Source: Rhynchopus sp. YZ270_cl-10
Lineage: Eukaryota
Reading direction: 5' to 3'
NCBI GenBank assembly: GCA_964035575.1
Contig: OZ037838.1
Span: 434,001-498,000, forward strand
Length of the DNA: 64,000 bases
Below the pieces are notes generated by a model, which did no database searches, was not told the DNA's origin, and worked only from the letters and a program-made list of their open reading frames with translations. The translations under genes and the position numbers were made by a program. Of this stretch, positions 1 to 63,967 are shown piece by piece. Each line of letters opens with the position of its first letter. Position 1 is the stretch's first letter.

Positions 1-383
1 TACACTCTGAACTCGAAGACAGTGTCGAAGGTTTCTGTGTCGAAGCCGCCAACGTCCCCACTGTCGTTACTGTGGACGCAGAGCGTTCCACAACGCGACA
101 GCATCAACGTCGTCGCTTGCGGTTCTGCACTGTACTTAGCAGGACACTTGATGTCGGCAAAGGGGCACGCAAGCACAACCTGCACCCCTGCACCAAACGC
201 AGTGTCCTGCAGACGGCACGTCCCCTCCAGCACCTGCGTGCCGATGCGCATCTCGACAGACGCAGGCGAGACAGCAAGCGCCGTGCACGCAACCTCCTTT
301 GCCGCTGCTACCTTCGCCTCGCACGGCACCTCCACTGTCGCAGTCACGCCTGACTCTTCCAGCACAAAGGTCACATCCATCAT
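1..383 (-). CDS. UBL + beta-propeller family member, copy 1 (5' part only; runs off the window edge)
   Basis: ATG of MMDVTFVLEESG at 383; sequence near-identical to the 5' part of the other copies. Confidence 0.8.
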   Translation of the reverse strand, partial: MMDVTFVLEESGVTATVEVPCEAKVAAAKEVACTALAVSPASVEMRIGTQVLEGTCRLQDTAFGAGVQVVLACPFADIKCPAKYSAEPQATTLMLSRCGTLCVHSNDSGDVGGFDTETFDTVFEFRV

Positions 384-1251
384 ATTGTTAAGGGCTCTGT
401 TGTGTTTGATGTGATGGTTGGTGGTGTCACTTCGCAACAACAAATAAGAAGGTTGGTGGGTTAAACACGTGTTTCAACAAACTCTGACAAAGCAAGCAAT
501 TTGAAGATACCCTGCGGCAAACACACAGTCATTGTGGCTTGCCAAAGATCATGGGGTGGAATGATTCTTTCCTGGGGTTGTCGTCAGATTCATTCTTTTT
601 TTTTTTTTGCCACGATTGTGGTTAAAGTATACATGATGATATGATCGTATTGTTGTTTGGCTAAGTGGTGCAGAAGGAACAGGATGAGGATGTCAGGCAG
701 TGCAGCTACCTCAGATGCTGTGCGTTTGGCAAGTTGCAGCGTCTGTGCATAACGTCCAGCTCAGGCGTTTTATTGTTCACTTTGTCAAAATCTCTTTGTT
801 TTTCTCTTTGTCTATTTTTCCTGCATTTTTTATTCTCTTCTTTGTACTTTCTTTTGTTTTGGTTGTTGTTAGATAAGCTCAATCGCCTATCGAGTTCTGT
901 GAATAGCACGGAACTCCTTTTCATGTGTATCCATGGAAATCAGTATCATATGTGATACCGGGGCACAGTCTCTGTTCATGTTGTACATGACTTTGTTCTT
1001 TGTCAGCGTGCACGGCTCGACATAGTTAGAGAAAAAATAGACAGAGAGAAAAATTGGAGGTAAAAATTTTTGAAAAAAGGTGTCGTTTGAGAAAAACAAA
1101 CAAACGGACGCGCTGTGTGAAAAACGAGTGTTTCTCTGCGCGTGATATTTTGTGGGGAAGAATAAAACATTATGAAAAAAGCTCGTTGCGTTCCCACTAT
1201 CGTTTCCGCTGCGCTCTCACTAGCGTTCCCACTCCATTCGGTTTTCTCTTA

Positions 1252-3136
1252 GGGTAGCACAATTAAAAATATTGTTTAGTGTCCTGCGCGCGAACAGATT
1301 TTTGGAAATCCAAAAAAAAAAAATAATTGGGACACAACTACAAAAAAAATAATTTTTATGGTTGGTAGGTTGAAGTCAGGACGGACGAAGTCTCGGAGGG
1401 CACTAAGGGGGAAGGTAGGTAGGGCACTTCTGTCTGGGAAAAAGTGACCAGAAAAAAAAAATGTCGGGGTCCCGTACTCCCAAATGTGCGAAATAAGCAA
1501 GAAATAAGCATTTTTGCGCACACGTGTATAAAAAAAAATCCGCCTCCGGCGGGGTTCGTTTTCGAGGATTTTCAGAGATCTCACGTTATGAAAATTTCCT
1601 TAAGAAACCATTGAATCTCATATTTCAGAATAATAGTACCTTAGTGGGGAGATCCGGGTGCCCGCAACAACAATATTCACAAAAAATCAGAAAAAATCAC
1701 AACAAATCACAACAAATCACACAAAAGAAATACAAAAAATCACAAAAAAAAAATCCTATTCACAACAAATCACAAAAAATCACAAAAAATCACAAGCAAT
1801 CACAAAAAAAAAATCCTATTCACAAACAATCACAAAAAATCACAAACAAAAAATCTTATTCACAAAAAATCACACAAAATCACAAAAAATAAATCCTATT
1901 CACAAAAAATCACAAGTAATCACAAAAAAAAAATCCTATTCACAAAAAATCACAAACAATCACAAAAAAATCACAAAAAATCACAAAAAGTGGATGTGAT
2001 TCTTTTTGATTTTTTGTGAATAGGATTTTTTTTTTGTGATTACTTGTGATTTTTTGTGAATAGGATTTATTTTTTGTGATTTTGTGTGATTTTTTGTGAA
2101 TAGGATTTTTTTTTTGTGATTGCTTGTGATTTTTGTGATTTTTTGTGATCGTTTGTGATTTTTTGCGAATAGGATTTATTTTTTGTGATTACTTGTGATT
2201 TTTTGTGAATAGGATTTATTTTTTGTGATTTTGTGTGATTTTTTGTGAATAAGATTTTTTGTTTGTGATTGTTTGTGATTTTTTGTGAATAGGATTTATT
2301 TTTTGTGATTGCTTGTGAATATTGTTGTTGCGGGCACCCGGATCTCCCCACTTAGAGTGTTTTTGGACACACATGTGACCCCACCGTGGAGAGCAATCGG
2401 CTCGTGCAATCAAAAGAAAGTGGAGAAAAGGTACAAGAATAAAAAAAGTTGGGTACCGTGCGCCTGCGGCGCTGCCTGTTCCCTACCAGTTTCTACAGGC
2501 AAACACTTGCCCCCTTTACCTTACACTGACGGGTTTTGACCAAAACCAAGAACTTGTCCATTTCGGCAAATTGACCCCACCACAGAACGGACGGATTCCG
2601 AAAATGCAAATGCCGGTGTTTTCGCGCATTTTCATGTTTCAAGACGTCAGGATCAGGGAGAGAAAATCTGGTTGTGGGATTTACCTTGGCCCTCTTTACC
2701 CTACATGGATTTTGACCAAAACCAAGAATTTAGCCATTTCGGCAAAGTGACCCCACCACAGTGCGGACGGATTCCGGAAATCCCAATCGCGGTATGTTTT
2801 CGGGCTGAAAACTCACTGTTTTTTCAGGGGAAAAAATTGCTTCCAAATGTCGGAATTTTCCTGAAAATGACCCTTGTTTACAAGTATGGGTTCATATTTT
2901 GCGAAAATTTAAGTCACTAAAATTTTGTCCATTTTCCCGTATTCACCCCACCACAAGCCGGGATTGGCTCAGAAATGCAACAAAACGCCCCAGAGTTAGG
3001 AAATAGCCTGAAAAGAGGGCAAAATAGGTGAGGGAAAAATTATTTTTTTTTGACTAGTTATTTTTTTTTTGCGTGCGTGCGAACAGATTTTTGGGGAGCG
3101 GTGGGACACTAAACAAGGTTTTTAATTGTGCTACCC
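1252..3136. mobile_element. PIF/Harbinger-like non-autonomous transposon (MITE)
   Basis: TIR GGGTAGCACAATTAAAAA..TTGTTTAGTGTCC at both ends; TTA TSD (1249-1251, 3137-3139); empty site at 62661-62677 has a single TTA. Confidence 0.85.
1644..2351. mobile_element. Foldback-type Harbinger-like MITE nested in 1252-3136
   Basis: TIR GTGGGGAGATCCGGGTGCCCGCAACAACAATATTCAC; TTA TSD; the two arms are inverted arrays of A-rich AATCAC repeats. Confidence 0.85.
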
Positions 3137-3416: not shown

Positions 3417-4535
3417 TCACTCACTGTTGTGTGGGAACAGATGACGCGTCACAATGACGCCATCTGGTTGCATAACCATAACAACGCGTGAACACGGCGA
3501 TATCGCAAACCATGAACTGTTGCATGGTATCACGTGCACACGGGACATGGTTGCCACATCAAACTGGTGTAGGTGTACATCGCAATCTTCATAATTTTCG
3601 TCATCAGCATCAAATTCCAAAGCACGTATCCCCACCACAAGGTACTTCCCACACGGGGTGAACCGCATGCCCTGGACACTCTCACCCACATCAACACTGC
3701 GAAGAGCCGTACCACTCCAGTCAAAGAGCTGCACGTCGTCTTCCTCCTCCACCACAGCAAAGACAGAGGCAGGCCGCGAAAGCGCGACAACGTGACTTGA
3801 TACAGGCACACATGCCACAGCTTCACCTGTGTTCACATCCCACAGACGTACGTTCTTCTCTTTGTAGGAGGAGGTGATCACCCACCCACCACAGTCCGAC
3901 ACTGCCACGTCCCAGCAGCCTTCGTGCGAGAGAGAGCGGAGCAACGTCAGGTCTTCGTCATACACAGAGACGCCGTCTTTGCCTTGGGAGAAAACAGCAC
4001 CACCACACGCAAACACTGAGTATAAGATGCCGTCGACTTTGCGGAGCACCTCCCCACCCGGAAGCGCAACCTCGAGAAGGCCTGCCTTGCATGACAGGTA
4101 GCAGCGTGTCTTGCACTGCGAGATGGCAGGCGGACCGAACACTTCATTGTCCACTTCAAACGAGAAGACAGTGTCGAAGGTTTCTGTATCGAAACCGTCA
4201 ATATGCCCACTATCCTCCGGACTATAAACGCAGAGCGTTCCACAACGCGACAGCGACAAGTCTCCCGTCTGCGTTGCAGTGTACTCAGCAGGACACTTGA
4301 TGTCGGCAAAGCGAGGGCGGGCAAGCACAACCTGCACCCCTGCATCAAACGCAGTGTCCTGCAGACGGCACGTCCCCTCCAGCACCTGCGTGCCGATGCG
4401 CATCTCGACAGACGCAGGCGAGACAGCAAGCGCCGTGCACGCAACCTCCCTTGCCGCTGCAACGTTCGCCTCGCACGGCACCTCCACTGTCACAGTCACG
4501 CCTGACTCTTCCAGCACAAAGGTCACATCCATCAT
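3417..4535 (-). CDS. UBL + 7-bladed WD40-like beta-propeller protein, copy 2 (372 aa)
   Basis: Open ORF from MMDVTF; N-terminal ~72 aa follow the ubiquitin beta-grasp pattern; seven repeats ending in GFD/LLE/VYD/LWD/LFD/QFD/VTR; ends PHNSE*. Confidence 0.85.
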   Translation of the reverse strand: MMDVTFVLEESGVTVTVEVPCEANVAAAREVACTALAVSPASVEMRIGTQVLEGTCRLQDTAFDAGVQVVLARPRFADIKCPAEYTATQTGDLSLSRCGTLCVYSPEDSGHIDGFDTETFDTVFSFEVDNEVFGPPAISQCKTRCYLSCKAGLLEVALPGGEVLRKVDGILYSVFACGGAVFSQGKDGVSVYDEDLTLLRSLSHEGCWDVAVSDCGGWVITSSYKEKNVRLWDVNTGEAVACVPVSSHVVALSRPASVFAVVEEEDDVQLFDWSGTALRSVDVGESVQGMRFTPCGKYLVVGIRALEFDADDENYEDCDVHLHQFDVATMSRVHVIPCNSSWFAISPCSRVVMVMQPDGVIVTRHLFPHNSE

Positions 4536-11697: not shown

Positions 11698-11790
11698 CTG
11701 GGTACCTGGGTACCTGGGTACCTGGGTACCTGGGTACCTGGGTACCTGGGTACCTGGGTACCTGGGTACCTGGGCACCTGGGCACCTGGG
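11698..11790 (+). repeat. (CTGGGTAC)n 8-bp tandem array
   Basis: Read directly from the sequence. Confidence 0.95.
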
Positions 11791-17741: not shown

Positions 17742-18259
17742 TCACTCACTGTTGTGTGGGTACAGATGTCTCGTCACCAGAATGCCCTCCAATGGAATCG
17801 TCACAACAACGCGTGAACACGGAGATATCACAAATGACTCAACTGAGCTTTGCGGCATCACATGCACACAGGACATGGTCGACACATCATACTGGCGCAG
17901 GTAGGAGTTGAACGCCATATCATCGGTGTCCACACCATTAATGAACTCCGTAATCACTACCCCTGCCACAAGGTACTTCCCACACGGGGTGAACTGTATG
18001 TCCTGGACAACTCCACGCACAGCAACACTGCGAAGAGCCGCACCACTCCAATCATAGAGGTGCACTTTGTTCCACCCCTCCACAGCAAAGACAGAGGCAG
18101 ACCGCGAAAGCAACACTTGTACGCACGACCACTCGTCGGGCTCCACAGGCACACAGGCCACAAAAATACCTATGTTCACATCCCACAGACGTGCGTTGTT
18201 CTCCTTGTTGCAGGAGGTGATCACCCACCCACCACAGTCCGAAAGGTCACATCCATCAT
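17742..18259 (-). pseudogene. UBL-propeller copy 4, large internal deletion
   Basis: MMDVTF is joined out of frame directly to the (S)DCGGWV blade-4 sequence at ~18241; about 600 bp missing. Confidence 0.85.
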
Positions 18260-18691
18260 TGTTTCAAGAGCTGTGTAGGTGTGATGCAATTTAATGTTCT
18301 GTTTGGTGGACAGTTGAAGGAGCGGAGAGGGTGGACACGTGGAAAGAGGGGACGAGGGATGGGGTCGTTGTTTGAATATACTGTTTTGGTTGGGGTGAAA
18401 GTTCTCGGGCACAGGACAAAAATGAACGGCAGTGAGCACATGAATAGGTCTCACCATGGCGCACATCTCTGTGTGGAGGGCGACGAGGGCGGCCTGGCGG
18501 GAGGCGATGTGGTGTTCGGCTGCGACAAGGTGGTCTGCGGTGTCTTGCTCGTGGATGCAGATCTGCCATCACTGGATAGGTGTGTGGTGGCAAGACGCAG
18601 GCTTCTGTTGACGACACCAGTTCTTCCGCCTTCACGGAATACAAGGGGGCAAGTCACCACACCCATTTCACATGGTGCCAAAGCATGAACA

Positions 18692-19833
18692 TCACTCGTT
18701 GTGGGGGTACAGATGTCTTGTCGCAATGGTGGTGCTGTCGGATGATAGAAACATAACCACACGTGAACATGGTGATATTGAAAATGAGTGACCGGTGACA
18801 TCAGGGATCACAAGTACACAGGACATAGTCGCCACATCATACTGGTGCAGCTCTGCGTGTAGTTCTCCATGCAAACTCTCTTGTACATGGAAAACAAGGT
18901 ACTTCCCACACGGAGTGAATTGCACGCCAACGACACAGCCAGAGAGAGTTGCGTTCTGAAGAGCCGCACCACTCCAGTCGTAGAGCTGCACTCTCCGTGC
19001 CTCGTCCCCAGAGCCCCCCACAGCAAAGACAGAGGCAGACCGTGACAGCGCTGCAGCGCTCGTTGACAGAGGGACACATACCACAGCTTCACCTGTGTTC
19101 ACATCCCACAGACGTGCGTTGTTCTCAGTATTGGAGGAGGTGATCACCCAGCCACCACAGTGCGATACTGCCACTCTGCCCCACTGGCCGCTCTTCTGGT
19201 GCAAGAGAGTGCGGAGCAACGTCAGGTCTTCGTCATACACAGAGACGCCGTCTGTGCCCTTCGAGACAACAACACTGCCACACGCGAACACTGACCCGAG
19301 ATGCCATTGACTTTGCGGACCACCTCCCCACCCGGAAGCGCAACCTCGTGCATACCTTCCCTGCACGCCAGGTAGCAGCGTGTCTTGAACTGCGAGATGG
19401 CAGGCGGACCGCACACCTCAATGTCTACTTTGAACTTGAAGGCAGGGCTGAAGGTTTCTGTATCGAGGCCGGTGACATAAGTGACAGAGCCCGCCCTCTG
19501 TGTAAAGAGGCAGAGTGCTCCACAAGGAGACAGCGATAAGTGATGCATATACCTCCGATGTCCACCAGTTGTCACCTCTGCACTGTACTCAGCAGGACAC
19601 TTGATGTCGGCAAAATAGCGGGCAAGCACAACCTGCACCCCTGCATCAAACGCAGTGTCCTGCAGACGGCACGTCCCCTCCAGCACCTGCGTGCCGATGC
19701 GCATCTCGACAGACGCAGGCGAGACAGCAAGCGCCGTGCACGCAACCTCCTTTGCCGCTGCAACGTCCGCCTCGCACGGCACCTCCACTGTCGCAGTCAC
19801 GCCTGACTCTTCCAGCACAAAGGTCACATCCAT
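18692..19833 (-). pseudogene. UBL-propeller copy 5, single frameshift near 19297
   Basis: N-terminal half in ORF 19222-19989, C-terminal half in ORF 18692-19414; one base short at KVNGIS-x-SVFACG. Confidence 0.8.
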
Positions 19834-20175: not shown

Positions 20176-21249
20176 TCACTCACTGTTGTGCGGGTACAGA
20201 TGCTTTGTCACAATGACGCCATCTGATTGCATAGCCACAACAACACGTGAACACGGTGATATCACCAATGACGAAACATAGCTTTGAGGTATCACATGCA
20301 CACAGGAAATGGTCGACACATCATACTGGTGCAGCATGAGTGATACCTGCACCACAAGGTACTTCCCACACGGGGTGAACTGCACAGCATCGACTTCCCC
20401 ATCCACATCAACACTGCGAAGAGCCGCACCACTCCAATCATAGAGGTGCACAGTGTTTTCCTCCACCACAGCAAAAACAGAGGCAGACCGTGAAAGCGCC
20501 ACCCCATCGCAGTCCTCCAGCGGCACACATGCCACAGCTTCACCTGTGTTCACATCCCACAGACGTGTGTTGTTCTCCGTGTTGGAGGAGGTGATCACCC
20601 ACCCACCACAGTCCGAAACTGCCATGTCCCAGCACCTTTTATGCGAGAGAGTGCGGAGCAACGTCAGGTCTTCGTCATACACAGAGACGCCGTCTGAGCC
20701 CTTCGAGACAACAACACCACCACACGCAAACACTGACTTCGACATGCCGTCGACTTTGCGGACCACCTCCCCACCCGGAAGCGCAACCTCGAGAAGGCCT
20801 TCCACACACGCCAGGTAGCAGCGCGTTTTGCACTGCGAGATGGCAGGCGGAGCGTAGACTATAGTGTCCACTTCAAACGAGAAGACAGTGTCGAAGGTTT
20901 CTGTGTCGAAGCCAACAACATCCCCATTCCCGTTACTGTGGATGCAGAGCGTTCCACAACGCGACAGTCTTATGCTTCCCGCATGCGTTGCAGTATACTC
21001 AGCAGGACACCTGATGTCGGCCAAGCGAGGACAGGCAAGCACAACCTGCATCCCTGCATCAAACGCAGTGTCCTGCAGACGGCACGTCCCCTCCAGCACC
21101 TGCGTGCCGATGCGCATCTCGACAGACGCAGGCGAGACAGCAAGCGCCGTGCACGCAACCTCCTTTGCCGCTGCAACGTCCGCCTCGCACGGCACCTCCA
21201 CTGTCGCAGTCACGCCTGACTCTTCCAGCACAAAGGTCACATCCATCAT
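20176..21249 (-). CDS. UBL-propeller copy 6 (357 aa)
   Basis: Intact ORF, same architecture as copy 2. Confidence 0.85.
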   Translation of the reverse strand: MMDVTFVLEESGVTATVEVPCEADVAAAKEVACTALAVSPASVEMRIGTQVLEGTCRLQDTAFDAGMQVVLACPRLADIRCPAEYTATHAGSIRLSRCGTLCIHSNGNGDVVGFDTETFDTVFSFEVDTIVYAPPAISQCKTRCYLACVEGLLEVALPGGEVVRKVDGMSKSVFACGGVVVSKGSDGVSVYDEDLTLLRTLSHKRCWDMAVSDCGGWVITSSNTENNTRLWDVNTGEAVACVPLEDCDGVALSRSASVFAVVEENTVHLYDWSGAALRSVDVDGEVDAVQFTPCGKYLVVQVSLMLHQYDVSTISCVHVIPQSYVSSLVISPCSRVVVAMQSDGVIVTKHLYPHNSE

Positions 21250-23572: not shown

Positions 23573-24670
23573 TCACTCACTGTTGTGTGGGTACAGATGT
23601 GCTGTTGCAATGACGCCATTTGGTTGCCTAACCATAACAACACGTGAACACGGCGATATCGCAAATGACCCATAAATAATGGGTTGCGGTATCACACGTA
23701 CACAAGACATGGTCGCCACATCGTACTGGTGCAGGTATACATTGTCAGATTCCGTAACCTCTTCCCCCACCACAAGGTACTTCCCACACGGGGTGAACTG
23801 CATGTCCTGGACAAGCCCACCCACATCAACACTGCGAAGAGCCGCACCACTCCAATCATAGAGGTGCACGTTGCCTTCCTCCCCCTCCACAGCAAAGACA
23901 GAAGCAGACCGTGAAAGCGCCACTCTACACCAGAACCCCGCAGGCACACATGCCACAGCTTCACCTGTGTTCACATCCCACAGACGTATGTTGTCCTCCA
24001 TGTTGGATTTAGTGATCACCCACCCACCACAGTCCGACACTGCCATGTCACTGCACTCTTCATGCGAGAGAGAGCGGAGCAACGTCAGGTCTTCGTCATA
24101 CACAGAGACGCCGTCTGAGCCCTTCGAGACAACAACACCACCACAGGAGAACACCGAGTCCGAGAGGCCGTCGACTTTGCGGACCACCTCCCCACCCGGA
24201 AGCGCAACCTCGAGAAGGTAATCCCAACACGCCATGTAGCAGCGTGTCTTGCAGCGCGAGATGGCAGACGGAGGGCGCACTTTAGCGTCCACTTTGAACG
24301 AGAAGACAGTGTCGAAGGTTTCTGTGTCGAAGCCACCAACATGCCCACTCTCGTTACTGTGGATGCAGAGCGTTCCACAACGCGACAGCGACAAGTCTCC
24401 CGTCTGCGTTGCAGTGTACTCAGCAGGACACTTGATGTCAGCCAAGCGAGGACAGGCAAGCACAACCTGCACCCCTGCATCAAACGCAGTGTCCTGCAGA
24501 CGGCACGTCCCCTCCAGCACCTGCGTGCCGATGCGCATCTCGACAGACGCAGGCGAGACAGCAAGCGCCGTGCACGCAACCTCCTTTGCCGCTGCAACGT
24601 CCGCCTCGCACGGCACCTCCACTGTCGCAGTCACGCCTGACTCTTCCAGCACAAAGGTCACATCCATCAT
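23573..24670 (-). CDS. UBL-propeller copy 7 (365 aa)
   Basis: Intact ORF. Confidence 0.85.
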   Translation of the reverse strand: MMDVTFVLEESGVTATVEVPCEADVAAAKEVACTALAVSPASVEMRIGTQVLEGTCRLQDTAFDAGVQVVLACPRLADIKCPAEYTATQTGDLSLSRCGTLCIHSNESGHVGGFDTETFDTVFSFKVDAKVRPPSAISRCKTRCYMACWDYLLEVALPGGEVVRKVDGLSDSVFSCGGVVVSKGSDGVSVYDEDLTLLRSLSHEECSDMAVSDCGGWVITKSNMEDNIRLWDVNTGEAVACVPAGFWCRVALSRSASVFAVEGEEGNVHLYDWSGAALRSVDVGGLVQDMQFTPCGKYLVVGEEVTESDNVYLHQYDVATMSCVRVIPQPIIYGSFAISPCSRVVMVRQPNGVIATAHLYPHNSE

Positions 24671-24969: not shown

Positions 24970-26070
24970 TCAGTAGGGGTACAAATGCCTTGCGACAAGG
25001 ACGTTACTTCCTGCATCACCTCCTGCTGCCTTGAACACAACCACACGTGAGCACGGCGATATTGCAAATACACCTTTGGTGTCCTGTATCACACGCACAC
25101 AGGACATGGTCGCCACATCATACTGGTGCAGAGTGTACTCTTCACAAAATAGTGCACCACTCCCAAACCCAATAACGACGTACTTCCCACACGGAGTGAA
25201 CTGCACGACACCGACGTGACACTGCTCCTTTGCAAAGCTGCCAAGAGTCGCACCACTCCAGTCATAGAGGTGCACTTTGTCATAGAACCCCACAGCAAAG
25301 ACAGAGGCACACCGTGAAAGCGCCACGTGATTCCCATCCGTAGGCACACATGCCACAGCTTCACCTGTGTTCACATCCCACAGACGTATGTTGTCCTCCA
25401 TGTTGGATTTAGTGATCACCCACCCACCACAGTCCGACACTGCCATGTCACTGCACTCTTCATGCGAGAGAGAGCGGAGCAACGTCAGGTCTTCGTCATA
25501 CACAGAGACGCCGTCTGAGCCCTTCGAGACAACAACACCACCACAGGAGAACACCGAGTCCGAGAGGCCGTCGACTTTGCGGACCACCTCCCCACCCGGA
25601 AGCGCAACCTCGAGAAGGTAATCCCAACACGCCATGTAGCAGCGTGTCTTGCAGCGCGAGATGGCAGACGGAGGGCGCACTTTAACGTCCACTTTGAACG
25701 AGAAGACAGTGTCGAAGGTTTCTGTGTCGAAGCCACCAACATGCCCACTCTCGTTACTGTGGATGCAGAGCGTTCCACAACGCGACAGCGACAAGCTGTC
25801 TGCTTTCTGCTGCAGACTGTACTCAGCAGGACACTTGATGTCGGCAAAGCGGCGGGCAAGCACAACCTGCACCCCTGCATCAAACGCAGTGTCCTGCAGA
25901 CGGCACGTCCCCTCCAGCACCTGCGTGCCGATGCGCATCTCGACAGACGCAGGCGAGACAGCAAGCGCCGTGCACGCAACCTCCTTTGCCGCTGCAACGT
26001 CCGCCTCGCACGGCACCTCCACTGTCACAGTCACGCCTGACTCTTCCAGCACAAATGTCACATCCATCAT
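24970..26070 (-). CDS. UBL-propeller copy 8 (366 aa), mosaic
   Basis: Intact ORF; ends HLYPY*. Confidence 0.85.
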   Translation of the reverse strand: MMDVTFVLEESGVTVTVEVPCEADVAAAKEVACTALAVSPASVEMRIGTQVLEGTCRLQDTAFDAGVQVVLARRFADIKCPAEYSLQQKADSLSLSRCGTLCIHSNESGHVGGFDTETFDTVFSFKVDVKVRPPSAISRCKTRCYMACWDYLLEVALPGGEVVRKVDGLSDSVFSCGGVVVSKGSDGVSVYDEDLTLLRSLSHEECSDMAVSDCGGWVITKSNMEDNIRLWDVNTGEAVACVPTDGNHVALSRCASVFAVGFYDKVHLYDWSGATLGSFAKEQCHVGVVQFTPCGKYVVIGFGSGALFCEEYTLHQYDVATMSCVRVIQDTKGVFAISPCSRVVVFKAAGGDAGSNVLVARHLYPY

Positions 26071-26779: not shown

Positions 26780-27886
26780 TCAGTAGGGGTACAGATGTCT
26801 CGTCTCAATGGTGTCGCATTCCAAATTCGCAAATAGTATCACACGTGAACACGGCGATATCTTTAATGAAAACACAGCGAAGTCTGAAAATTCACGCACA
26901 CAGGACATGGTCGCCACATCATACTGTTGCAGTAAATATTTTTGACCGTACGTCAACTCAAGTAAAAGGTACTTCCCACACAGAGTGAACTGCATGGAAC
27001 AGACAAAGAGATACCCCGGTTTATCAAAGCTGCCAAGAGCCGCACCACTCCAGTCGTAGAGCTGCACTTCGTTAGAGCACACCGCAGCAAAGACAGAGGC
27101 AGACCTTGAAAGCGCCACGTGATTCCCATCAGCAGGCACACATGCCACAGCTTCACCTGTGTTCACATCCCACAGACGTGCGTCCTCACCTCTATTGGAG
27201 GAGGTCATCACCCACCCACCACAGTCCGACACCGCTACGTAATTACACCCTTTGTGTGATAGAGAGCGGAGCAACGTCAGGTCTTCGTCATACACAGAGA
27301 GGCTTCCTTGTTCACCCCAGGAGACAACAACACCACCACGCGCGTACACTGCGTATGAGGTGCCGTCAACTTTGCGGACCACCTTCCCACCCGGAAGCGC
27401 AATCTCGCTTAGGCCTTCCTTGCACACCAGGTAGCAGCGTGTCTTGCACCGTGGGATGGCAGGCACACCGCACACATCAAAGTCTACTTTGAACTTGAAG
27501 GCAGGGCTGAAGGTTTCTGTATCGAGGCCGGTGATATAGCCTTGCTTCTGTGTAACGAGGCAGAGTGCTCCACAAGGAGACAGCGTCAAACGAATCACAT
27601 TATTTAGCTGTCCACCAGGTGGCACCTCTAGACTGTACTCAGCAGGACACTTGATGTCAGCAAAGCGGCGGGCAAGCACAACCTGCACCCCTGCCTCAAA
27701 CGCAGTGTCCTGCAGACGGCACGTCCCCTCCAGCACCTGCGTGCCGATGCGCATCTCGACAGACGCAGGCGAGACAGCAAGCGCCGTGCACGCAACCTCC
27801 TTTGCCGCTGCAACGTCCGCCTCGCACGGCACCTCCACTGTCGCAGTCACGCCTGACTCTTCCAGCACAAAGGTCACATCCATCAT
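26780..27886 (-). CDS. UBL-propeller copy 9 (368 aa)
   Basis: Intact ORF; ends HLYPY*. Confidence 0.85.
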   Translation of the reverse strand: MMDVTFVLEESGVTATVEVPCEADVAAAKEVACTALAVSPASVEMRIGTQVLEGTCRLQDTAFEAGVQVVLARRFADIKCPAEYSLEVPPGGQLNNVIRLTLSPCGALCLVTQKQGYITGLDTETFSPAFKFKVDFDVCGVPAIPRCKTRCYLVCKEGLSEIALPGGKVVRKVDGTSYAVYARGGVVVSWGEQGSLSVYDEDLTLLRSLSHKGCNYVAVSDCGGWVMTSSNRGEDARLWDVNTGEAVACVPADGNHVALSRSASVFAAVCSNEVQLYDWSGAALGSFDKPGYLFVCSMQFTLCGKYLLLELTYGQKYLLQQYDVATMSCVREFSDFAVFSLKISPCSRVILFANLECDTIETRHLYPY

Positions 27887-31196: not shown

Positions 31197-32324
31197 TCAC
31201 TCACTGTTGTGTGGGTACAGATGTCTTGTCACAATGACGCCATCTCGTTGCATAACCATAACAACGCGTGAACACGGCGATATCGCAAATGACTTGCTAG
31301 AGAGTTGCGGTATTTCATGCACACAGGACATGGTCGCCACATCGTACTTGCGTAGGTCTATATAACAAGGATCGTCATCCACGTCGCAGTCCTCACCAGG
31401 CTCGTGCTCACCTACCCCCACCACAAGGTACTTCCCACATGGTGTGAACTGCATACCCCAGAGACTCCCATCCACATCAACACTGCGAAGAGCCGCACCA
31501 CTCCAATCAAAGAGGCGTACACTGCTATCGCTCCCCACAGCAAAGACAGAGGCAGACCGTGAAAGCGCCACGTTATAACACCACTCCACAGGCACACATG
31601 CCACAGCTTCACCTGTGTTCACATCCCACAGACGTATGTTCTTCTCCTTCCAGGAGGCACTGAGCACCCACCCACCACAGTCAGACACTGCCACATCCCT
31701 GCACCGTACGCGCGAGAGAGAGCGGAGCAACGTCAGGTCTTCGTCATACACAGAGACGCCGTTGTGGCCCTGCGAGACAACAACCCTGCCACACGCGAAC
31801 ACTGAGTGCGAGGAGCCGTCGACTTTGCGGACCACCTCCCCACCCGGAAGCGCAACCTCGAGAAGATCTTCCACGCATGACAGGTAGCAGCGTGTCTTGC
31901 ACTGCGAGATGGCAGGCGCACCGTACGCACGATGGGGTGTGTTGAACTTAAAGACACGGGCAAAGGTTTCTGTGTCGAAGCCAACAACATTACCATCATA
32001 AACAGAGACGCAGAGCGTTCCACAACGCGACAGTGACATCGCTACGTTCATCGACAACTCCTTCGAATTGTACTCAGCAGGACACTTGATGTCGGCAAAG
32101 CGAGGACAGGCAAGCACAACCTGCACCCCTGCACCAAACGCAGTGTCCTGCAGACGGCACGTCCCCTCCAGCACCTGCGTGCCGATGCGCATCTCGACAG
32201 ACGCAGGCGAGACAGCAAGCGCCGTGCACGCAACCTCCTTTGCCGCTGCAACGTCCGCCTCGCACGGCACCTCCACTGTCGCAGTCACGCCTGACTCTTC
32301 CAGCACAAAGGTCACATCCATCAT
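31197..32324 (-). CDS. UBL-propeller copy 10 (375 aa)
   Basis: Intact ORF. Confidence 0.85.
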   Translation of the reverse strand: MMDVTFVLEESGVTATVEVPCEADVAAAKEVACTALAVSPASVEMRIGTQVLEGTCRLQDTAFGAGVQVVLACPRFADIKCPAEYNSKELSMNVAMSLSRCGTLCVSVYDGNVVGFDTETFARVFKFNTPHRAYGAPAISQCKTRCYLSCVEDLLEVALPGGEVVRKVDGSSHSVFACGRVVVSQGHNGVSVYDEDLTLLRSLSRVRCRDVAVSDCGGWVLSASWKEKNIRLWDVNTGEAVACVPVEWCYNVALSRSASVFAVGSDSSVRLFDWSGAALRSVDVDGSLWGMQFTPCGKYLVVGVGEHEPGEDCDVDDDPCYIDLRKYDVATMSCVHEIPQLSSKSFAISPCSRVVMVMQRDGVIVTRHLYPHNSE

Positions 32325-40464: not shown

Positions 40465-41598
40465 TCACTCAGTGTTGTGTGGGTACAGAGGCTTCGTCAC
40501 AATGGTGTTGCTTGAGGACACAAACACAGCCACACGCGAACACGGTGATACCGCAAATGACAAACACGTGGAGTGAAGGTCAACAATCACGCGCACACGG
40601 GACATCGTCGCCACATCGTACTGGTGCAGTTCTACACTACCTTCATCATCTCGTTCATCGTCATAATATTCCTGCACCTTGACCACAAGGTACTTCCCAC
40701 ACGGAGTGAACTGCATGTGCGTGTCCTCGAGATCCCACCCATCCACATCAATAATGCCAAGCGCCGCACCACTCCAATCAAAGAGGTGCACACCGTCCTT
40801 CTCCCCCACAGCAAAGACAGAGGCAGACCGTGAAAGCGCCACTCCACACAACCCATCCGTCGGCACACATGCCACAGCTTCACCTGTGTTCACATCCCAC
40901 AGACGTCCCTTCCTCCGGGAATGTGCGGAGGCGAGCAGCCACCCACCACAGTGCGACAGAGCCACTTTCTGTGTGCCCCTGCACTCGTGCGATACAGAGC
41001 GGAGCAACGTCAGGTCTTCGTCATACACAGAAACGCCTCCTGTGCCCTGGGAGAGAACAACACCACCACACGCAAACACTGAGTACGAGGGGCCGTCGAC
41101 TTTGCGGACCACCTCCCCACCCGGAAGCGCAACCATGCGTAAGTCTTCCCCATACGCCAGGTAGCAACGTGTCTTGCACTGCGAGATGGCAGGCAGGATT
41201 TGCCAAGTACCGTCCACTTTGAACGAGAAGACAGTGTCGAAGGTTTCTGTGTCGAAGCCGACATACACCTCGTTCTTCTGTACAAAGACGCAGAGCGTTC
41301 CACAACGCGACAGCGACAAGTGCTTCACACTCCGCTGTGCACTGTACTCAGCAGGATACTTGATGTCGGCAAAGCGGGGGCGGGCAAGCACAACCTGCAC
41401 CCCTGCATCAAACGCAGTGTCCTGCAGACGGCACGTCCCCTCCAGCACCTGCGTGCCGATGCGCATCTCGACAGACGCAGGCGAGACAGCAAGCGCCGTG
41501 CACGCAACCTCCTTTGCCGCTGCAACGTCCGCCTCGCACGGCACCTCCACTGTCGCAGTCACGCCTGACTCTTCCAGCACAAAGGTCACATCCGTCAT
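40465..41598 (-). CDS. UBL-propeller copy 11 (377 aa)
   Basis: Intact ORF. Confidence 0.85.
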   Translation of the reverse strand: MTDVTFVLEESGVTATVEVPCEADVAAAKEVACTALAVSPASVEMRIGTQVLEGTCRLQDTAFDAGVQVVLARPRFADIKYPAEYSAQRSVKHLSLSRCGTLCVFVQKNEVYVGFDTETFDTVFSFKVDGTWQILPAISQCKTRCYLAYGEDLRMVALPGGEVVRKVDGPSYSVFACGGVVLSQGTGGVSVYDEDLTLLRSVSHECRGTQKVALSHCGGWLLASAHSRRKGRLWDVNTGEAVACVPTDGLCGVALSRSASVFAVGEKDGVHLFDWSGAALGIIDVDGWDLEDTHMQFTPCGKYLVVKVQEYYDDERDDEGSVELHQYDVATMSRVRVIVDLHSTCLSFAVSPCSRVAVFVSSSNTIVTKPLYPHNTE

Positions 41599-55393: not shown

Positions 55394-55402
55394 GGGATTG
55401 GG

Positions 55403-55828: not shown

Positions 55829-55910
55829 GAATAGCTTTAGCCTACTCAAAAATGTTCCTTTATTTTTTCTTTTAATCATATACTTGCAAAAAGACGTTGG
55901 GGTAAATCGG

Positions 55911-57573
55911 CTAGGCCGAGCTAGTCGAATCCGCCCCGACGCCAGTAAAGAACAACCGCACCGCACGTTGGACCTCAAACATGAGGTTGGGAGAGGAGAG
56001 GGAGGAAGGGGGAACACGAGAGGGTTTGTCAGCAGGGTTGAGCTTGGTACTGATCCACTGTAATGAAATTGTACACCACAAGTGCTCCAAACGCGCAAGA
56101 GCTTGCACCACCGCGTCATTCAGAATCTTGGATGCCGTACAAATTTTCTTCCGGGCCACACCCACCACAGAAGTGTTGTCAACCCAGATATCCACCTTAC
56201 CACCGGCCGCGGAGTCGGGAAGGGCGGCTATAGTGTTACGCAACGCAAGAGCTTCCAGCACATTAATGTGTAGCTCAGACTCCTGGGAGTCCCAACTAGC
56301 ACCTACAATAGTCATTTCGTTGCTACGGCGGTCCACAATGACACCGCCCCAACCCTTCAGAGAAGCATCAATAAAAACAGCAAGGGAAGAATGGGGGGAG
56401 GGGGGCTTAAAAACACGCGGCATACACACAGCGGAGCGCCAACTGGCTAACTCCTTACGCACCGAAGCAGGGATAACAATAGAGTCGCTGGGCAGACGTC
56501 TGCCCGCATTGAGAGCGTTCGAAATACGCCTCAAAAACTTCACCGTAAACCAAAACTTTCCCGGAAAGACCCCCGCAATGGCGGTGGCGTGCAGCAGTCT
56601 GCCCGCCAGGGACTCCAAAGAACTCGCAGATGCAACACTTAACTCAAGGGAAAAAATTTTGTCCAACAGTTTGGGAGAGGGGGTCACTGAACTGGACGTA
56701 TGCTTAAAATCAACACCAATAAACACATATGACTCACTAGCCGTGACAGAGTCCTCCGGCTTCCACGTAATCCCACAGCTGCTGGCGCGAGAGTCCATCC
56801 GCTTCGTTGCAGCAACTACGTCGTCACGCGACCCACACAAGCGCACTCCATCGATCCACGTATGCACGGTCACTCCCTGCGCGACGTGCTTCTCTTGGAC
56901 ATATGCGGGGTCGCCTCCGATCACTGCTGTGATGGTGTGCATGAGCTCTGGGGCGCAGGAGTGACCCATCGGTAGTCTCGTCAGCTCCCACCAAACACCA
57001 TTGTCGTCCGTGTAGCGGAAGTAGCGGCGAGACTCAGTTGGGATTTCGACCTGGAAAAACCCGCATCGCAGGTCGCGAACACTACCACACTCCTTCTCAA
57101 CCGCAGACAAGTACCTCGACACATGACCCAGAGGCACCTGAGCTTCATAGCCGGCAGCATCCAAGACGTCATTGGCCTCACGAGTCCAGAGGATGAATCG
57201 TTGGCGGAGACCTGTGGGCTTCTCTTCCACAACAGTGAAGGGGATGTTGCAGCATACTCCGGGTCCGTCTGCACGCACAGCTATGCCTGTATCCTGGAGT
57301 ACAGCGGCGTGTTCTGCACTCAGACGAGAAGGATGTGCAGAAGCCTCTCCTGACAGCTCCGTGGGGTAGAAAGCTGCCTGCCAAACCTCGTTGAACCTGT
57401 CCAGGATGGCAGGACGCATCATGCCTTTGACTCTGCTCAATACCAAGGGGGACACGTTCACAGCATGCAGGGGGGAGGCCCGTTCTTCGTCCGTGCAGGG
57501 GAGGCGGGTGTGTTGGGACCGCTTGGTGATGCGGTGTTGCTTGCGGGCGAACTTGTCCACCATCACAGCCATT
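55911..57573 (-). CDS. Reverse transcriptase + RNase H (C-terminal part of the 918-aa open frame 55911-58667)
   Basis: RT motifs RQRFILW, DLRCGFFQV, RLPMGH, WIDG, FIGVDF; DIRS-type RNase H motifs FIDASLKGWG, HINVLE, VDNTS, NPADKPSR. Confidence 0.9.
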
Positions 57574-58390
57574 TCGTCACGTCCTGCGTGCCGATTGCTT
57601 TCGCCAGAGCGACTGGGTCCCCTGCGTACCTGATGGTGGTGGGCGACAGCGCAACCTCCACCTTGTGCTTCGCCAGCACGGAAATGAGGGAGGGGTTCAC
57701 GGGCTTTTTCTCCGCCAGCAACGACAGGAGATGGGTCACTGCCCCTCTCTTGATGCTGTGCCCCGAGAATGAGGTCATCCCTGGCGTGTGGTGCCACTTC
57801 TCCGTCAGCGCCTCGGTGGTGGTCTCCGTGAGGTAGCGGAAGGGCTTCAGCCGTCCGTAGAGGGACGCAATTTTCTCCGTGAGCGCGCCTGTCACCACTA
57901 CCAACTTCGACGGCGTGAAGGGGTCCCCCCGGCGCCCCTTCGGTAGGGTGTGCCAATCCACTATCACCTCTGTGGGCGTCACCTTCACAAACTGCTCTGA
58001 TCCCAACTTCTGCACTTCGTCCCAACGGCTGGCCGTTTTCCAAGCTAGCATTGCGCAGAGGCACAGGTCGTTCTGCTGGTGCTCTGCCCACTGGAGGAGG
58101 GTTCTGCGAGGAATCGGGGTGGCTTGGCTTGTGGGAATTGCCGCCCCTGCGGCCCGCAGCGCTGCTGCAAAGCTGAGCAGCGGTTGGTTGCCCAGGCCGA
58201 TGTGGGTGAAGGTGCCTGATAGGGCCTTGGCGTAGGTGAGCTGCCCTTGCTTTGACACTTGAGTGGCAAGGACGAACAACACCGCTGTGTCGGCTGTCAT
58301 CGGCAGCTGGTGCAGGCCCGTCTGCGAACCTGGACCACAGGTATTTGCGTTGTTGCGACGTGCGCTTGGCCCACATGTCCTCCACCACGC
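57563..58390 (-). CDS. Tyrosine recombinase catalytic domain (N-terminus probably supplied from another frame)
   Basis: Catalytic R (TASRWDE), K (LPKG), HSIKR, LAKH and TTIRY all present. Confidence 0.88.
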   Translation of the reverse strand, partial: AWWRTCGPSARRNNANTCGPGSQTGLHQLPMTADTAVLFVLATQVSKQGQLTYAKALSGTFTHIGLGNQPLLSFAAALRAAGAAIPTSQATPIPRRTLLQWAEHQQNDLCLCAMLAWKTASRWDEVQKLGSEQFVKVTPTEVIVDWHTLPKGRRGDPFTPSKLVVVTGALTEKIASLYGRLKPFRYLTETTTEALTEKWHHTPGMTSFSGHSIKRGAVTHLLSLLAEKKPVNPSLISVLAKHKVEVALSPTTIRYAGDPVALAKAIGTQDVTKWL

Positions 58391-58748
58391 CTAGCAGCCA
58401 CTCGGTCGCTTGCTTCGGGTTGACCTCTGTCTCCTTCACTCGAGATATGGGACGCACCCGCCCGGAGGTGGCTACATGCGTCAGTACGGCCTCTCCAAAA
58501 AGAGATGGGGGGGTAATACCGGGATGGGGGTATCTGTGTGGTGTGGTATGTGTGTTGGGGGGGGGGCTGCGCGGCGGCATTGCTGCTGGGGGCTGCAGTG
58601 ACCCTTGACTTGGCGGGGAGGCGGGCGGGCACAGCTGCATCGGAGGTGGACACCTTCGTTTGTACACGCGCGTTGGTGGGGCGGTTGGGACAATGGGAAT
58701 AACTTGCTGGGGATGTACAGGGGGGGCGGGCCGAGAAGAGGGGGGGAG

Positions 58749-60329
58749 TCACTGTTTCCCCTTCCCGGCCTTCCCGTTTCCCGGTGGGCCGGTCTTCTGT
58801 CCATGCGCTGCCGCACCGCCTTTGCCTCCCTTGTGTGATTTTGGAGGAGGGCGCGTCTGCACATACCGAGCCACTTCATGTCCCGGAGTCGACTGTGCGG
58901 TGGCACGGGTGATGTCCTTGCGAGGGACACGCTCTGACGCGAAAGCGTATTGTATGTGTAACTCCCGAAGAAGCATGTTGCCGAGGACGCGGTGGGGGGT
59001 GCCCTTCCACGACGGCGTCCACTCCGCAGCCAGTATCCACATACGCATCCACTGAAACGTCAACTGCAGGGCCGCCCCCCCCGGTCCATGCTTCAATCCA
59101 GACACAAAGTACTGGTTGAGCTCCAAGATGAGGCCCGCCGAGTCGTTGCGGATACGGTCCGCCCACTCCTCGACCGTCTCCGCCACCACTGGGTCTTTGA
59201 CCCACATGTCGAGCTCGTCTGTAGGTTGTGGGTTGGTGCGTGGTGGTAGCGGTCCGTTCTCAGCCACAGCATCGTGCCAGAGCCCGTCGTCCGCCACGTC
59301 CGTCTTTACCCGTGTGTAGGTGGGGGCCGTGTGTGTGTGTGTGTGTGATGAGGACTGCGACACCTTCAGTCGGTCCACCTCGGCTTGCAGCTCCCTCATC
59401 TGCACCTCCATCGAACTGTTGATGCCGCTCTGCAGGCGGGCATCTTCCTCCTGCTGCCGGTTCGCCTGGCGGAGGCGGGCAATCTCCGCGTCGCGCTGCG
59501 CAAGTGCGGCTTCTGCGGAACTCCGGATCGAGCTCGCCTCCTTCTCCGCCGCTTCTGCCTGGTGCCCCATCTTCTGGCGGGCCTGCTCTGTCTGATGCAG
59601 AGACAGCGCCACAATGCGCGTGTAGCGCCATCCGGCCACAGGCAACGCCACCAACTCATCACCTCCCTCATGGGGCACACAGCCCTCTGCGACGTTGTTG
59701 TAGCAACTGCTGCGCACAAGACCAAACACCTTATTCCCCAGGCCAACCAGCTTGCCTGCGTGGTGGAGGGTCTCCTTCCCTCCAGGGGGGTACCCGGAGA
59801 TCACCACCTCCTGCCCAAGGAGCACCTGCGCCTGCTCACCCAGCATCCATTCTTTCATCTGCTGGGGTGCGGGCACGTCGCCTTGACCGGCGGAGGCATG
59901 GGGTGTGCCCTTCCGCGCCTCCGCAAAAGCAAACTGACTCTTGGACCTGCAAACGGGCACAGGTTCCTCATCCGCCTCGTCAGAAGAAGAGCGAACCCTC
60001 AGGGCGTGGATGGCTCCCACCATCTTCATCAGATTCCAGTCCGGTCGCACATCGGCTTCGCAGAACTCACGCAGGTACACCGTCAACACATTCTCCGCGA
60101 CAGTGTCCCCCGTCCACGCTGCCACCACCGCCTCAAAGGTGCCACTGAGCACGCGGTACGGGTACGAAAACCGTTCCTTGAGGATGGCGGCGTGTTTCGG
60201 CGGGAAGCCAAGAGCGTCGGCGGACCCCTCGCCAGTTTGGGGGTTCCAGAAGAACCGCGCTCCTTCCTCTTCGGACTCAAACCGAGTACGCAGCTTCGCC
60301 AGTTCTTCGGGTAGCTCGCGGAGTGCCAT
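58749..60329 (-). CDS. gag-like ORF1 of the YR retrotransposon (526 aa)
   Basis: First ORF of the element, ATG in AAAAATG context, central coiled coil, basic Gly/Lys-rich C-terminus; assigned by position. Confidence 0.75.
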   Translation of the reverse strand: MALRELPEELAKLRTRFESEEEGARFFWNPQTGEGSADALGFPPKHAAILKERFSYPYRVLSGTFEAVVAAWTGDTVAENVLTVYLREFCEADVRPDWNLMKMVGAIHALRVRSSSDEADEEPVPVCRSKSQFAFAEARKGTPHASAGQGDVPAPQQMKEWMLGEQAQVLLGQEVVISGYPPGGKETLHHAGKLVGLGNKVFGLVRSSCYNNVAEGCVPHEGGDELVALPVAGWRYTRIVALSLHQTEQARQKMGHQAEAAEKEASSIRSSAEAALAQRDAEIARLRQANRQQEEDARLQSGINSSMEVQMRELQAEVDRLKVSQSSSHTHTHTAPTYTRVKTDVADDGLWHDAVAENGPLPPRTNPQPTDELDMWVKDPVVAETVEEWADRIRNDSAGLILELNQYFVSGLKHGPGGAALQLTFQWMRMWILAAEWTPSWKGTPHRVLGNMLLRELHIQYAFASERVPRKDITRATAQSTPGHEVARYVQTRPPPKSHKGGKGGAAAHGQKTGPPGNGKAGKGKQ

Positions 60330-60520: not shown

Positions 60521-60744
60521 TACACAGTACACAGTACACAGTACACAGTACACAGTACACAGTACACAGTACACAGTACACAGTACACAGTACACAGTAC
60601 ACAGTACACAGTACACAGTACACAGTACACAGTACACAGTACACAGTACACAGTACACAGTACACAGTACACAGTACACAGTACACAGTACACAGTACAC
60701 AGTACACAGTACACAGTACACAGTACACAGTACACAGTACACAG
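60521..60744 (+). repeat. (TACACAG)32 array, right flank of the retrotransposon
   Basis: Read directly from the sequence. Confidence 0.97.
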
Positions 60745-61800: not shown

Positions 61801-62785
61801 AGTACGTTGTAGTCCATGGGCCATCATTCACACTCACGGTTTTCGGCAATAAAAGGGCCACCCCATTTGTACCTTGAGCTTGTTCTCGATCACAATAAAT
61901 CTATCTGTATAGCCAGAACAAGACCCCCCAGGCGGGGTCTGGGGGGCGGAGCCCCCCAGCGAAAATTTTTGACTTAACACTGGCTGTGCTTAGAAAACCC
62001 GAATTTTTTACCCTTGAAAAGTGCATTTGAGGAAGTCACAATGCGTCAAAACGAAAAGGTCGTTTTTGGCACTTTTAAAACCGGGCTCCGCTGAGTTCAC
62101 CATATTTTTGCTCGATTTATTTAGTGGAGTAACTATTACTTTATCGTATGTGTGGACAAAAATTTGGGACGGAGCGTAAGATAATTCCCTATGTATTTTC
62201 CTTAAGGAAAATACAGGCAAAAATCCAGGTAAAAATCACTTTGTACAGACTATGCCTGGCGGGCACAGGGTGTGTCAAAACCAAAAAAAAATTGCTCGAA
62301 TGGACGTTTCTGGGTTCCGGCATCTAGAGTCAAAAAAAATCTATTTTTTTTTTCGCGAAAATTTTTGACTTAACACTGGCTGTGCTTAGAAAACCCGAAT
62401 TTTTTACCCTTGAAAAGTGCATTTGAGGAAGTCACAATGCGTCAAAACGAAAAGGTCGTTTTTGGCACTTTTAAAACCGGGCTCCGCTGAGTTCACCATA
62501 TTTTTGCTCGATTTATTTAGTGGAGTAACTATTACTTTATCGTATGTGTGGACAAAAATTTGGGACGGAGCGTAAATAAAGAAGGGGGGGTATATCATTT
62601 TCAAAAAAGCGCGTTGCGTTCCCACTATCGTTTCCGCTGCGCTAGCGTTCCCACTCCATTCGGTTTCCTCTTACTTAGAGGGTCTTGGGTTTTTTTGCTG
62701 GTACCATGGGTTACATTCATCACCACTCCCCTTCCCCTCCACTGACACATCACTCAACAGAGGACGGGCCTCCCCTGGTCACACA

Positions 62786-63967
62786 TCACTCACTGTTGTG
62801 TGGGTGCAGATGCTGTGTCACAATGACGCCGTCTGATTGCGTAACCACAACAACACGTGAACACGGCGATATCGTAAATGCCCCCCCATTCTCGGTTTGC
62901 GACAGAACACGCACACAGGACATGGTCGCCACATCATACTGGTGCACGTATGACTTGTAATACTCGTAATCGGGGTAAATGCTGCTGCAATCGGTGTCCT
63001 CATCATCCGTATACCATATAAATTCCCCAACCTCTACCCCCACCACAAGGTACTTCCCACACGGGGTGAACTGCATGCCCCAGACCCCACCCACATCAAC
63101 ACCGCGAAGAGCCGCACCACTCCAATCATAGAGGTGCACGGTGCTATAGTCCACCACAGCAAAGACAGAGGCAGACCGTGAAAGCGCCACTTCACACGAC
63201 CTACCCGCAGGCACACATGCCACAGCTTCACCTGTGTTCACATCCCACAGACGTGCGCTGTCCTCACTGGAGGTGGTCACCCACCCACCACAGTCCGACA
63301 GTGCCAGGTCCTTGCACTCTTCATGCGAGAGAGAGCGGAGCAACGTCAGGTCTTCGTCATACACAGAGACGCCGTCTTTGCCCTTCGAGACAACAACACA
63401 GCCACACGCAAACACTGAGTGCAAGTCAACAACACCGCCACGTCCGTATGAAACCGAGGGGCCGTCGACTTTGCGGACCACCTCCCCACCCGGAAGCGCA
63501 ACCTCGAGAAGGCAATCCTTGCATGCCAGGTAGCAGCGTGTCTTGCACTGCGAGATGGCAGGTGGACCGAACACTTCATTGTCCACTTTGAACGAGAAGA
63601 CAGTTTCAAAGGTTTCTGTGTCGAAACCGCCAACGTGCCCACTCTTGTTACTGTGGATGCAGAGCGTTCCACAACGTGACAGCGTCAACGACATCGCTTG
63701 CGGCTCTGTAGTGTACTCAGTAGGACACTTGATGTCGGCCAAGCGAGGACAGGCAAGCACAACCTGCACCCCTGCATCAAACGCAGTGTCCTGCAGACGG
63801 CACGTCCCCTCCAGCACCTGCGTGCCGATGCGCATCTCGACAGACGCAGGCGAGACAGCAAGCGCCCTGCACGCAACCTCCTTTGCCGCTGCAACGTCCC
63901 CCTCGCACGGCACCTCCACTGTCGCAGTCATGCCTGACTCTTCCAGCACAAAGGTCACGTCCATCAT
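62786..63967 (-). CDS. UBL-propeller copy 13 (393 aa)
   Basis: Intact ORF, with a 10-aa internal duplication-like insertion (YGRGGVVDLH). Confidence 0.85.
   Translation of the reverse strand: MMDVTFVLEESGMTATVEVPCEGDVAAAKEVACRALAVSPASVEMRIGTQVLEGTCRLQDTAFDAGVQVVLACPRLADIKCPTEYTTEPQAMSLTLSRCGTLCIHSNKSGHVGGFDTETFETVFSFKVDNEVFGPPAISQCKTRCYLACKDCLLEVALPGGEVVRKVDGPSVSYGRGGVVDLHSVFACGCVVVSKGKDGVSVYDEDLTLLRSLSHEECKDLALSDCGGWVTTSSEDSARLWDVNTGEAVACVPAGRSCEVALSRSASVFAVVDYSTVHLYDWSGAALRGVDVGGVWGMQFTPCGKYLVVGVEVGEFIWYTDDEDTDCSSIYPDYEYYKSYVHQYDVATMSCVRVLSQTENGGAFTISPCSRVVVVTQSDGVIVTQHLHPHNSE

Follow-up and report, generated by a model that had tools for sequence, protein, structure and literature searches.

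How can a cluster of related genes keep one end of its proteins almost unchanged while nearly every copy presents a different surface at the other end, and what might such an arrangement serve? This question is raised by a 64,000-nt stretch of DNA from Rhynchopus sp. YZ270_cl-10 (contig OZ037838.1, 434,001-498,000; hereafter the window, within which all positions below are counted), which carries an array of genes whose predicted products combine an N-terminal ubiquitin-like (UBL) domain with a WD40-like propeller. Using the 375-aa product of one intact gene (31197-32324) as tblastn query, 13 family copies could be distinguished, the number given in a preliminary description of this DNA, together with a 44-codon fragment (29152-29283) which that description had overlooked. 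All are encoded on the minus strand and lack introns. Nine copies are intact, with products of 357-393 aa, while one runs off the window edge and three are disrupted (Table 1). The scaffold motifs and loop variants quoted in the preliminary description were likewise found in the window alignment.

The window holds part of a larger family. At least 120 distinct relatives, all from ENA or the window, were recovered by protein search, in which 419 of 6559 candidates matched at an expectation value (E) ≤0.001 and 120 matches were listed; the figure of 419 is not used as a family size, since generic WD40 proteins may pass this threshold. Among the 120 listed matches, 119 cover at least 96 % of the query (66-100 % amino acid identity) and 118 form single-member clusters at 90 % identity, with 30 encoded on the contig of the window, 83 on a 2.7-Mb contig and seven elsewhere. 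A profile search further detected older paralogues with the same two-domain layout, sharing 22-26 % identity with protein P0163 in their alignment. Because these distant paralogues carry both domains, the UBL-propeller layout is old, with one subfamily having expanded recently. A search with distant paralogues, limited by its word index, gave 22 matches, comprising two query rows, one further family-like protein and otherwise generic WD40 proteins, while scans of JGI metagenome and viral contigs yielded 123 and 51 pattern matches, respectively, and no confirmed relatives. No description of a UBL-propeller family was found in the literature searched, which covered few subscription papers; the words WD40 and ubiquitin are absent from the main text of the Diplonema genome paper.

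In the AlphaFold2 model, residues 84-368 of the reference protein form seven four-stranded blades closed by an N-terminal strand, with block values of the predicted local distance difference test (pLDDT) of 81-96 except in one long loop. The best matches among solved structures are G-beta (Foldseek E 1e-16; root-mean-square deviation (rmsd) ~3 Å over 305 columns) and other WD40 proteins, which bears out the seven-bladed propeller proposed earlier. The repeats are divergent, with one of ten window proteins passing the PF00400 cut-off of 27 (32.9), six scoring below it and three not listed. Blades within one gene are also unlike each other (best half-to-half match 8/28 residues), and only three repeats of 15-18 nt occur within a gene, which is the chance level. 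According to the models, the 357-393 aa of the intact proteins are wholly accounted for by the UBL, a linker and the propeller. A complex prediction of the UBL against the propeller, in which alignments were not used, scored 0.02 and is evidence neither for nor against packing of the two.

The variation is concentrated on one face of this propeller. Entropy was calculated for 96 proteins (96 of the 120 listed plus the window, with proteins bearing long N- or C-terminal extensions excluded; median pairwise identity 74 %), and positions were classed by the strand limits of the model after the entropy table had been seen. Mean entropy is 0.09 bits in the UBL (residues 1-72), 0.32 on the bottom face and 2.21 on the top face. 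The 81 sites above 2 bits comprise 70 of 109 top-face and 11 of 66 strand-core positions, all of the latter adjoining top loops, and none of the 110 bottom-face or 72 UBL positions. Variation is thus confined to the loops entering strand a and the b-c loops, as had been claimed, and is not spread over the whole structure. Each of the 14 loop windows occurs in 64-94 distinct sequences among the 96 proteins, with the b-c loop of blade 6 varying most in length (5-32 aa across residues 302-323; 35 % Asp+Glu). Variable sites are enriched in Asp, Asn, Tyr, His and Glu and depleted in Leu, Ile and Pro. When the WD40 hotspot motif taken from PMC3419727 (in part) is applied, entropy is 2.8-3.7 bits at all seven R1 positions, which were assigned by eye, and 2.6-3.7 bits at six of the seven R1-2 positions. 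Furthermore, variable-conserved-variable triplets occur at residues 171/172/173, 207/208/209 and 226/227/228. In the nine intact copies 35/35 gap runs are multiples of three, a figure partly due to the choice of intact copies, yet nine of the 12 whole copies are intact.

The N-terminal domain was unresolved in the first full-length model because the alignment held no diversity there, and its fold was reached by adding distant paralogues. Folded alone with 19 sequences, it adopts a ubiquitin fold (pLDDT 85), matching ubiquitin and many UBLs over 72 residues (Z score 12.4, 1.5 Å; many tied rows; Foldseek E 4e-5, rmsd 1.5 Å). Ubiquitin can be aligned, with no gap needed, to a profile built from nine N-terminal domains. 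A search of PDB sequences with a single UBL gave no match, and four of eight distant paralogues scanned matched PF00240 (E 7e-5 to 0.04), all below the cut-off. No di-Gly occurs at residues 70-83 in the window alignment or the 96-protein column table. The beta-grasp N-terminus without di-Gly, as first described, is therefore upheld. Residues 24 (D/K/N), 64 (D/G/C/E/A) and 65 (A/S), encoded at 32253-32255 and 32130-32135, are the only commonly variable UBL positions in the 96 proteins.

The near-identity of the UBL is a property of the DNA. Across copies its DNA is 98.7 % identical, and silent sites are as invariant as replacement sites (counted non-synonymous divergence, dN, 0.015; synonymous divergence, dS, 0.008). 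The invariance among close copies thus reflects homogenised DNA and, because dS is only 0.008, does not demonstrate protein constraint, so that it cannot be read as the mark of a constant effector handle, as the preliminary description had done; distant paralogues, moreover, keep only 19-30 of ~72 residues. Evidence that the UBL matters lies instead in its retention by the old paralogues. RNA structure was rejected as a cause of the silent-site invariance (z -0.75), and an Rfam search gave no match.

Several observations point to an exchange of short tracts among copies. The neighbouring 23573 and 24970 copies are 99.8 % identical over 148 codons (97-244), variable loops included, as against 53 % before and 70 % after this tract, which appears to represent a recent conversion or unequal crossover. 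Trees of different gene segments are mutually discordant, and the loops are nearly unlinked, with the correlation of loop-to-loop distances decreasing from 0.12 for neighbours to 0.00-0.08 further off (permutation p 0.034). Pairs of copies that share a conserved residue use different codons for it in 33 % of cases where the nearest variable site is one codon away, in 24 % where it is two codons away, in 12-14 % at distances of three to six codons and in 0.6 % at distances of at least 16. A peak of divergence at selected sites is a signature of conversion opposed by selection (PMC3924837, in part). The same source, in the part concerned, describes homogenised constant parts, divergence peaking at selected sites and pseudogenes within the cluster for the major histocompatibility complex, plant R-gene clusters and opsins; the likeness is one of evolutionary mode only, the structures being unrelated. 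On account of the mosaic neighbours, discordant trees, unlinked loops and graded silent divergence, short-tract conversion probably homogenises the UBL and scaffold and reshuffles the loops, whose differences would be maintained by selection. Local hypermutation, or misalignment close to indels, could also contribute to the silent-divergence pattern.

Selection was assessed on the nine intact coding sequences and the in-frame part of the 12958 copy. Counted dN/dS values are 0.06/0.17 for the bottom face, 0.25/0.28 for the strand core and 0.63/0.56 for the top face, beside those of the UBL given above. The scaffold had been called invariant, a slight overstatement in view of the dN values of the bottom face and core. 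In codon models with three segment trees and multi-nucleotide changes allowed, omega of the bottom face is 0.32 (p 3e-8 versus 1), and the genes are under coding constraint. For the top face the one-ratio omega is 1.44 (p 0.023 versus 1), a value matched by one of 424 neutral simulations that included silent-rate variation. A site model with silent-rate variation gives omega 2.2, with twice the log-likelihood difference (2dL) at 19.3, which was reached in none of seven null runs (highest 2.9). Of 38 sites with posterior >0.95, 33 lie on the top face. The top face is likely, though not proven, to have undergone positive selection.

Several points weigh against this selection and against a functional repertoire built upon it. 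The tests cover ten sequences and used the author's own codon-model code. By plain counting, top-face omega is 1.11 (0.91-1.37). At the 35 top-face codons away from indels, omega is 1.06 (p 0.81) and site models reach p ~0.06, and because these codons are not significant, misalignment near indels may contribute to the signal. The site test without silent-rate variation was inflated, neutral simulations often giving omega 2-3 and one of 37 reaching the observed 2dL of 28.1, and was set aside. The loops combine elevated silent divergence with large multi-nucleotide rates, which are also compatible with local hypermutation. Among close copies omega of the UBL is 2.0 (interval 0.5-32), with no protein-level constraint visible. 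The bottom loops of WD40 proteins are structurally constrained in general, and their conservation requires no partner. Finally, nothing ties the family to infection. Diversifying selection on the loops is thus supported by an omega above 1 in most tests, but not by the indel-free codons.

These points bear most directly on the alternative that the array grew by unequal crossing-over and conversion and that the top loops are unconstrained and locally mutable, their diversity having no selected role. Silent divergence is indeed high there as well (dS 0.56 versus 0.17 and 0.008), counted omega is near 1 and indel-free codons are not significant, three of 12 whole copies are broken, and the region contains many satellites, segmental duplications and a retroelement. 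However, variable and conserved positions alternate from one residue to the next, with variation highest at known binding hotspots, an omega above 1 is still preferred once silent rates vary, and neutral loops under free conversion should homogenise as the scaffold does. There is also no base-specific mutation bias of the type produced by diversity-generating retroelements or repeat-induced point mutation (RIP). Diversity at top-face positions with majority A is 0.49, compared to 0.38-0.40 for C, G and T, and every change type is present, with neither an adenine-specific nor a C-to-T bias. Loops free of any selected role are therefore considered unlikely.

The closest evolutionary parallel is found in the HNWD/NWD family (het-d, het-e) of Podospora anserina, whose propeller is diversified in the same d-a and b-c loops, where variable pairs flank a conserved residue, and whose members exchange sequence (PMC1805685, in part). 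The parallel drawn earlier with the diversified positions of HNWD holds for both the loops and the variable pairs. The Rhynchopus family differs in having neither a NACHT/NB-ARC domain, to which no Pfam match was obtained, nor a HET effector domain, while NLR/STAND proteins have a tripartite layout with a central NACHT or NB-ARC (PMC4986451, in part). High identity among the WD repeats within a gene is a feature of HNWD, whereas the blades here are unlike, and exchange takes place between the same blade of different genes rather than between repeats. In addition, all 14 loops vary here, with frequent changes in length, in more than 100 genes as compared to ten. In place and manner of variation the family resembles HNWD sensors, but it does not belong to the NLRs. 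Given that HNWD is defined by allorecognition (PMC1805685, in part), the repertoire might recognise variable self or conspecific proteins, as in allorecognition, incompatibility or intragenomic conflict, and the sequence signature cannot separate self from foreign targets. More than 100 paralogues in one or two arrays, against the ten members of HNWD (PMC1805685, in part), and the absence of a NOD and death domain make this reading distinctly unlikely.

The UBL bears on a further alternative, namely that the proteins are shuttles of the Rad23/Dsk2 type, which dock on proteasome receptors through the UBL and deliver bound targets for degradation. As in Rad23, Dsk2, Ddi1/2 and parkin, the ubiquitin fold is integral, N-terminal and without di-Gly, and the UBLs of Dsk2, Ddi2, Rad23 and parkin are among the many tied structural matches (Z 10.7-12.3). 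Proteasome receptors read the L8/I44/V70 patch of UBLs. In the ungapped register, L8, R42, I44, H68 and V70 of ubiquitin correspond to E10, E44, R46, V70 and A72 of the family UBL, and Ile is absent at ubiquitin position 44 in all 19 aligned sequences. The UBL is moreover strongly acidic (net charge -5 to -9, about -7), and the highly multicopy, diversified family has no UBA, RING or protease domain. Rad23-type docking, which the preliminary description had suggested, is improbable because the UBL lacks the Ile44 patch. A combination of a small constant N-terminal module with a propeller whose binding face evolves fast, in tandem arrays, is also seen in the expanded F-box-WD40/Kelch and BTB-Kelch families of substrate receptors, from which the present family differs in its beta-grasp module and in the absence of any F-box or BTB match in Pfam.

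Neither a signal peptide nor a membrane segment was found: the N-terminus is not hydrophobic and a 19-residue window above 1.8 occurs in only two of the 96 proteins, so that the proteins are likely cytoplasmic. The constant N-terminus, moreover, folds as a globular UBL. Effectors delivered into a host or prey cell and diversified against many host proteins are thereby highly improbable, even though a constant N-terminus in a large diversifying family is typical of parasite effectors.

The preferred reading, whose chances are judged about even, is that of a repertoire of cytoplasmic binders for fast-changing foreign proteins, in which the UBL passes the catch to one shared partner. Each copy would present a different predicted top face on a common propeller, this face would catch fast-changing foreign proteins, for example viral ones or those from bacteria living inside the cell, and the acidic UBL, instead of docking on the proteasome itself, would hand the bound target to one shared partner. 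A foreign origin of the targets is an evenly balanced proposition in itself, while disposal linked to the ubiquitin system is a rather doubtful outcome. An innate-immune role may be envisaged on this basis. In its fullest form, which is possible but tentative, this would be a protist, probably euglenozoan, innate-immune repertoire of hundreds of single-propeller receptors without a NOD switch, their 14 loops reshuffled by short-tract conversion like germline antibody cassettes, and a non-canonical acidic UBL leading to one disposal machine.

Table 1. Family copies, fragment and domains in the window; boundaries of the exchanged tracts are approximate, having been converted by hand from codon numbers.
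Position	Strand	Feature	Remarks
1..383	-	Family copy, 5' part	Truncated at window edge
3417..4535	-	Intact UBL-propeller gene	372 aa
12958..14084	-	Broken copy	11-nt deletion close to start; remaining 335-aa frame 12958-13965 without most of UBL
17742..18259	-	Broken copy	Internal loss of ~200 codons, codon 6 into blade 4, out of frame
18690..19833	-	Broken copy	1-nt deletion near 19295, in loop entering blade 3; assembly error possible
20176..21249	-	Intact gene	357 aa; shortest blade-6 loop
23573..24670	-	Intact gene	365 aa
~23948..24391	-	Tract of 23573 copy, reference codons 97-244	99.8 % identical to ~25348-25791 in 24970-26070
24970..26070	-	Intact gene	366 aa; mosaic
26780..27886	-	Intact gene	368 aa
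29152..29283	-	Fragment, blades 6-7	Close match to 23573 copy
31197..32324	-	Intact gene	375 aa; residue-numbering reference
32109..32324	-	UBL beta-grasp domain of reference	Residues 1-72
31221..32075	-	Seven-bladed WD40-like propeller of reference	Residues 84-368; 14 variable top-face loops
31356..31412	-	Blade-6 b-c loop of reference	
40465..41598	-	Intact gene	377 aa
52875..54011	-	Intact gene	378 aa
62786..63967	-	Intact gene	393 aa

Some listed relatives exceed the basic layout. Six matches are longer, four with a common C-terminal extension and one with a B-box region upstream. The former (P0122-P0125) are family members continuing into a common helical extension of 250-370 aa without Pfam match, possibly effector fusions, while P0126 encodes, in one frame, a B-box region, a second UBL-like segment and then the family member. 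The N-terminus of P0126 shares 42 % identity over 132 aa with the product of a window gene (35859-37355, minus strand) which comprises a B-box-like zinc finger, a predicted coiled region and a beta-rich C-terminus, a layout that is TRIM-like by eye.

All family copies and the other Pfam-matched window genes lie on one strand and are intronless, and co-transcribed one-strand gene clusters are known from euglenozoans (PMC10161547, in part). In two sequencing runs only guessed to be RNA (X12 and X13), pieces of the family occur on 22 contigs and one contig, respectively, which is not evidence of transcription, and summed contig depths were not used as copy number. In one X12 contig (window 32137-32321; also 24671-24715) the sequence diverges from the genomic 5' untranslated region type precisely at an AG that follows a pyrimidine tract, and has ATTG at this place, with which euglenozoan spliced leaders end (PMC3795323, in part). 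Being four letters long and from a run that is only presumed to be RNA, this match gives a weak hint of a trans-splice junction; no such departure was seen in X13, and no spliced-leader gene start was found in the window (five two-mismatch matches versus 2.6 expected).

Other elements are interspersed with the array. An apparently intact tyrosine-recombinase retroelement of the VIPER/TATE type (55911-60329, minus strand) encodes a gag-like frame (58749-60329), reverse transcriptase/RNase H (55911-58640) and an overlapping recombinase-like frame (57563-58300), and lies between satellites of 7 and 9 bp (54996-55828, 60521-60744). Its reverse transcriptase and RNase H matches in Pfam are weak, one being to a hepadnaviral model, and near-identical gag copies occur on several other contigs. 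The VIPER/TATE elements of kinetoplastids have an RNase H with hepadnaviral-type affinity (PMC6681497, in part), and TATE-like open reading frames have been reported in Diplonema (Diplonema genome paper). Together with the intronless one-strand gene order and the ATTG junction, the element makes a euglenozoan source of the DNA likely. Inside the array lies a BspA-type leucine-rich-repeat gene (15478-16110, minus strand; PF13306, E 3e-13), for which contig depths suggest multiple copies without giving a copy number. A His/Asp/Thr-rich 371-aa frame (38770-39885, minus strand) has no Pfam match. Two segmental duplications pair 27023-29159 with 31476-33607 and 10352-11791 with 50233-51625, the former taking in part of a family gene and truncating a copy of a PAN/EGF hydrolase-like gene (33531-34979). 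A USB1-like 2H phosphodiesterase (16827-17492, minus strand) recurs as an identical protein on the 2.7-Mb contig, and the contig of the window also carries a second variant of it. If the contigs represent two haplotypes of a single locus, almost no gene is common to both propeller repertoires at 90 % identity.

For single-celled eukaryotes other than fungi and algae, little is known about the recognition of viruses and of bacteria living inside the cell, and the family is a candidate in this respect, with one scaffold, more than 100 natural binding faces and a single common module. Here the top face of a propeller has become diversified outside the NLR layout, and the family constitutes a library of binders made by nature, in which a stable propeller frame carries 14 variable loops. 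Should the innate-immune repertoire prove true, its receptor architecture would be new, and this eukaryotic branch would gain a rare candidate for an intracellular immunity based on diversification.

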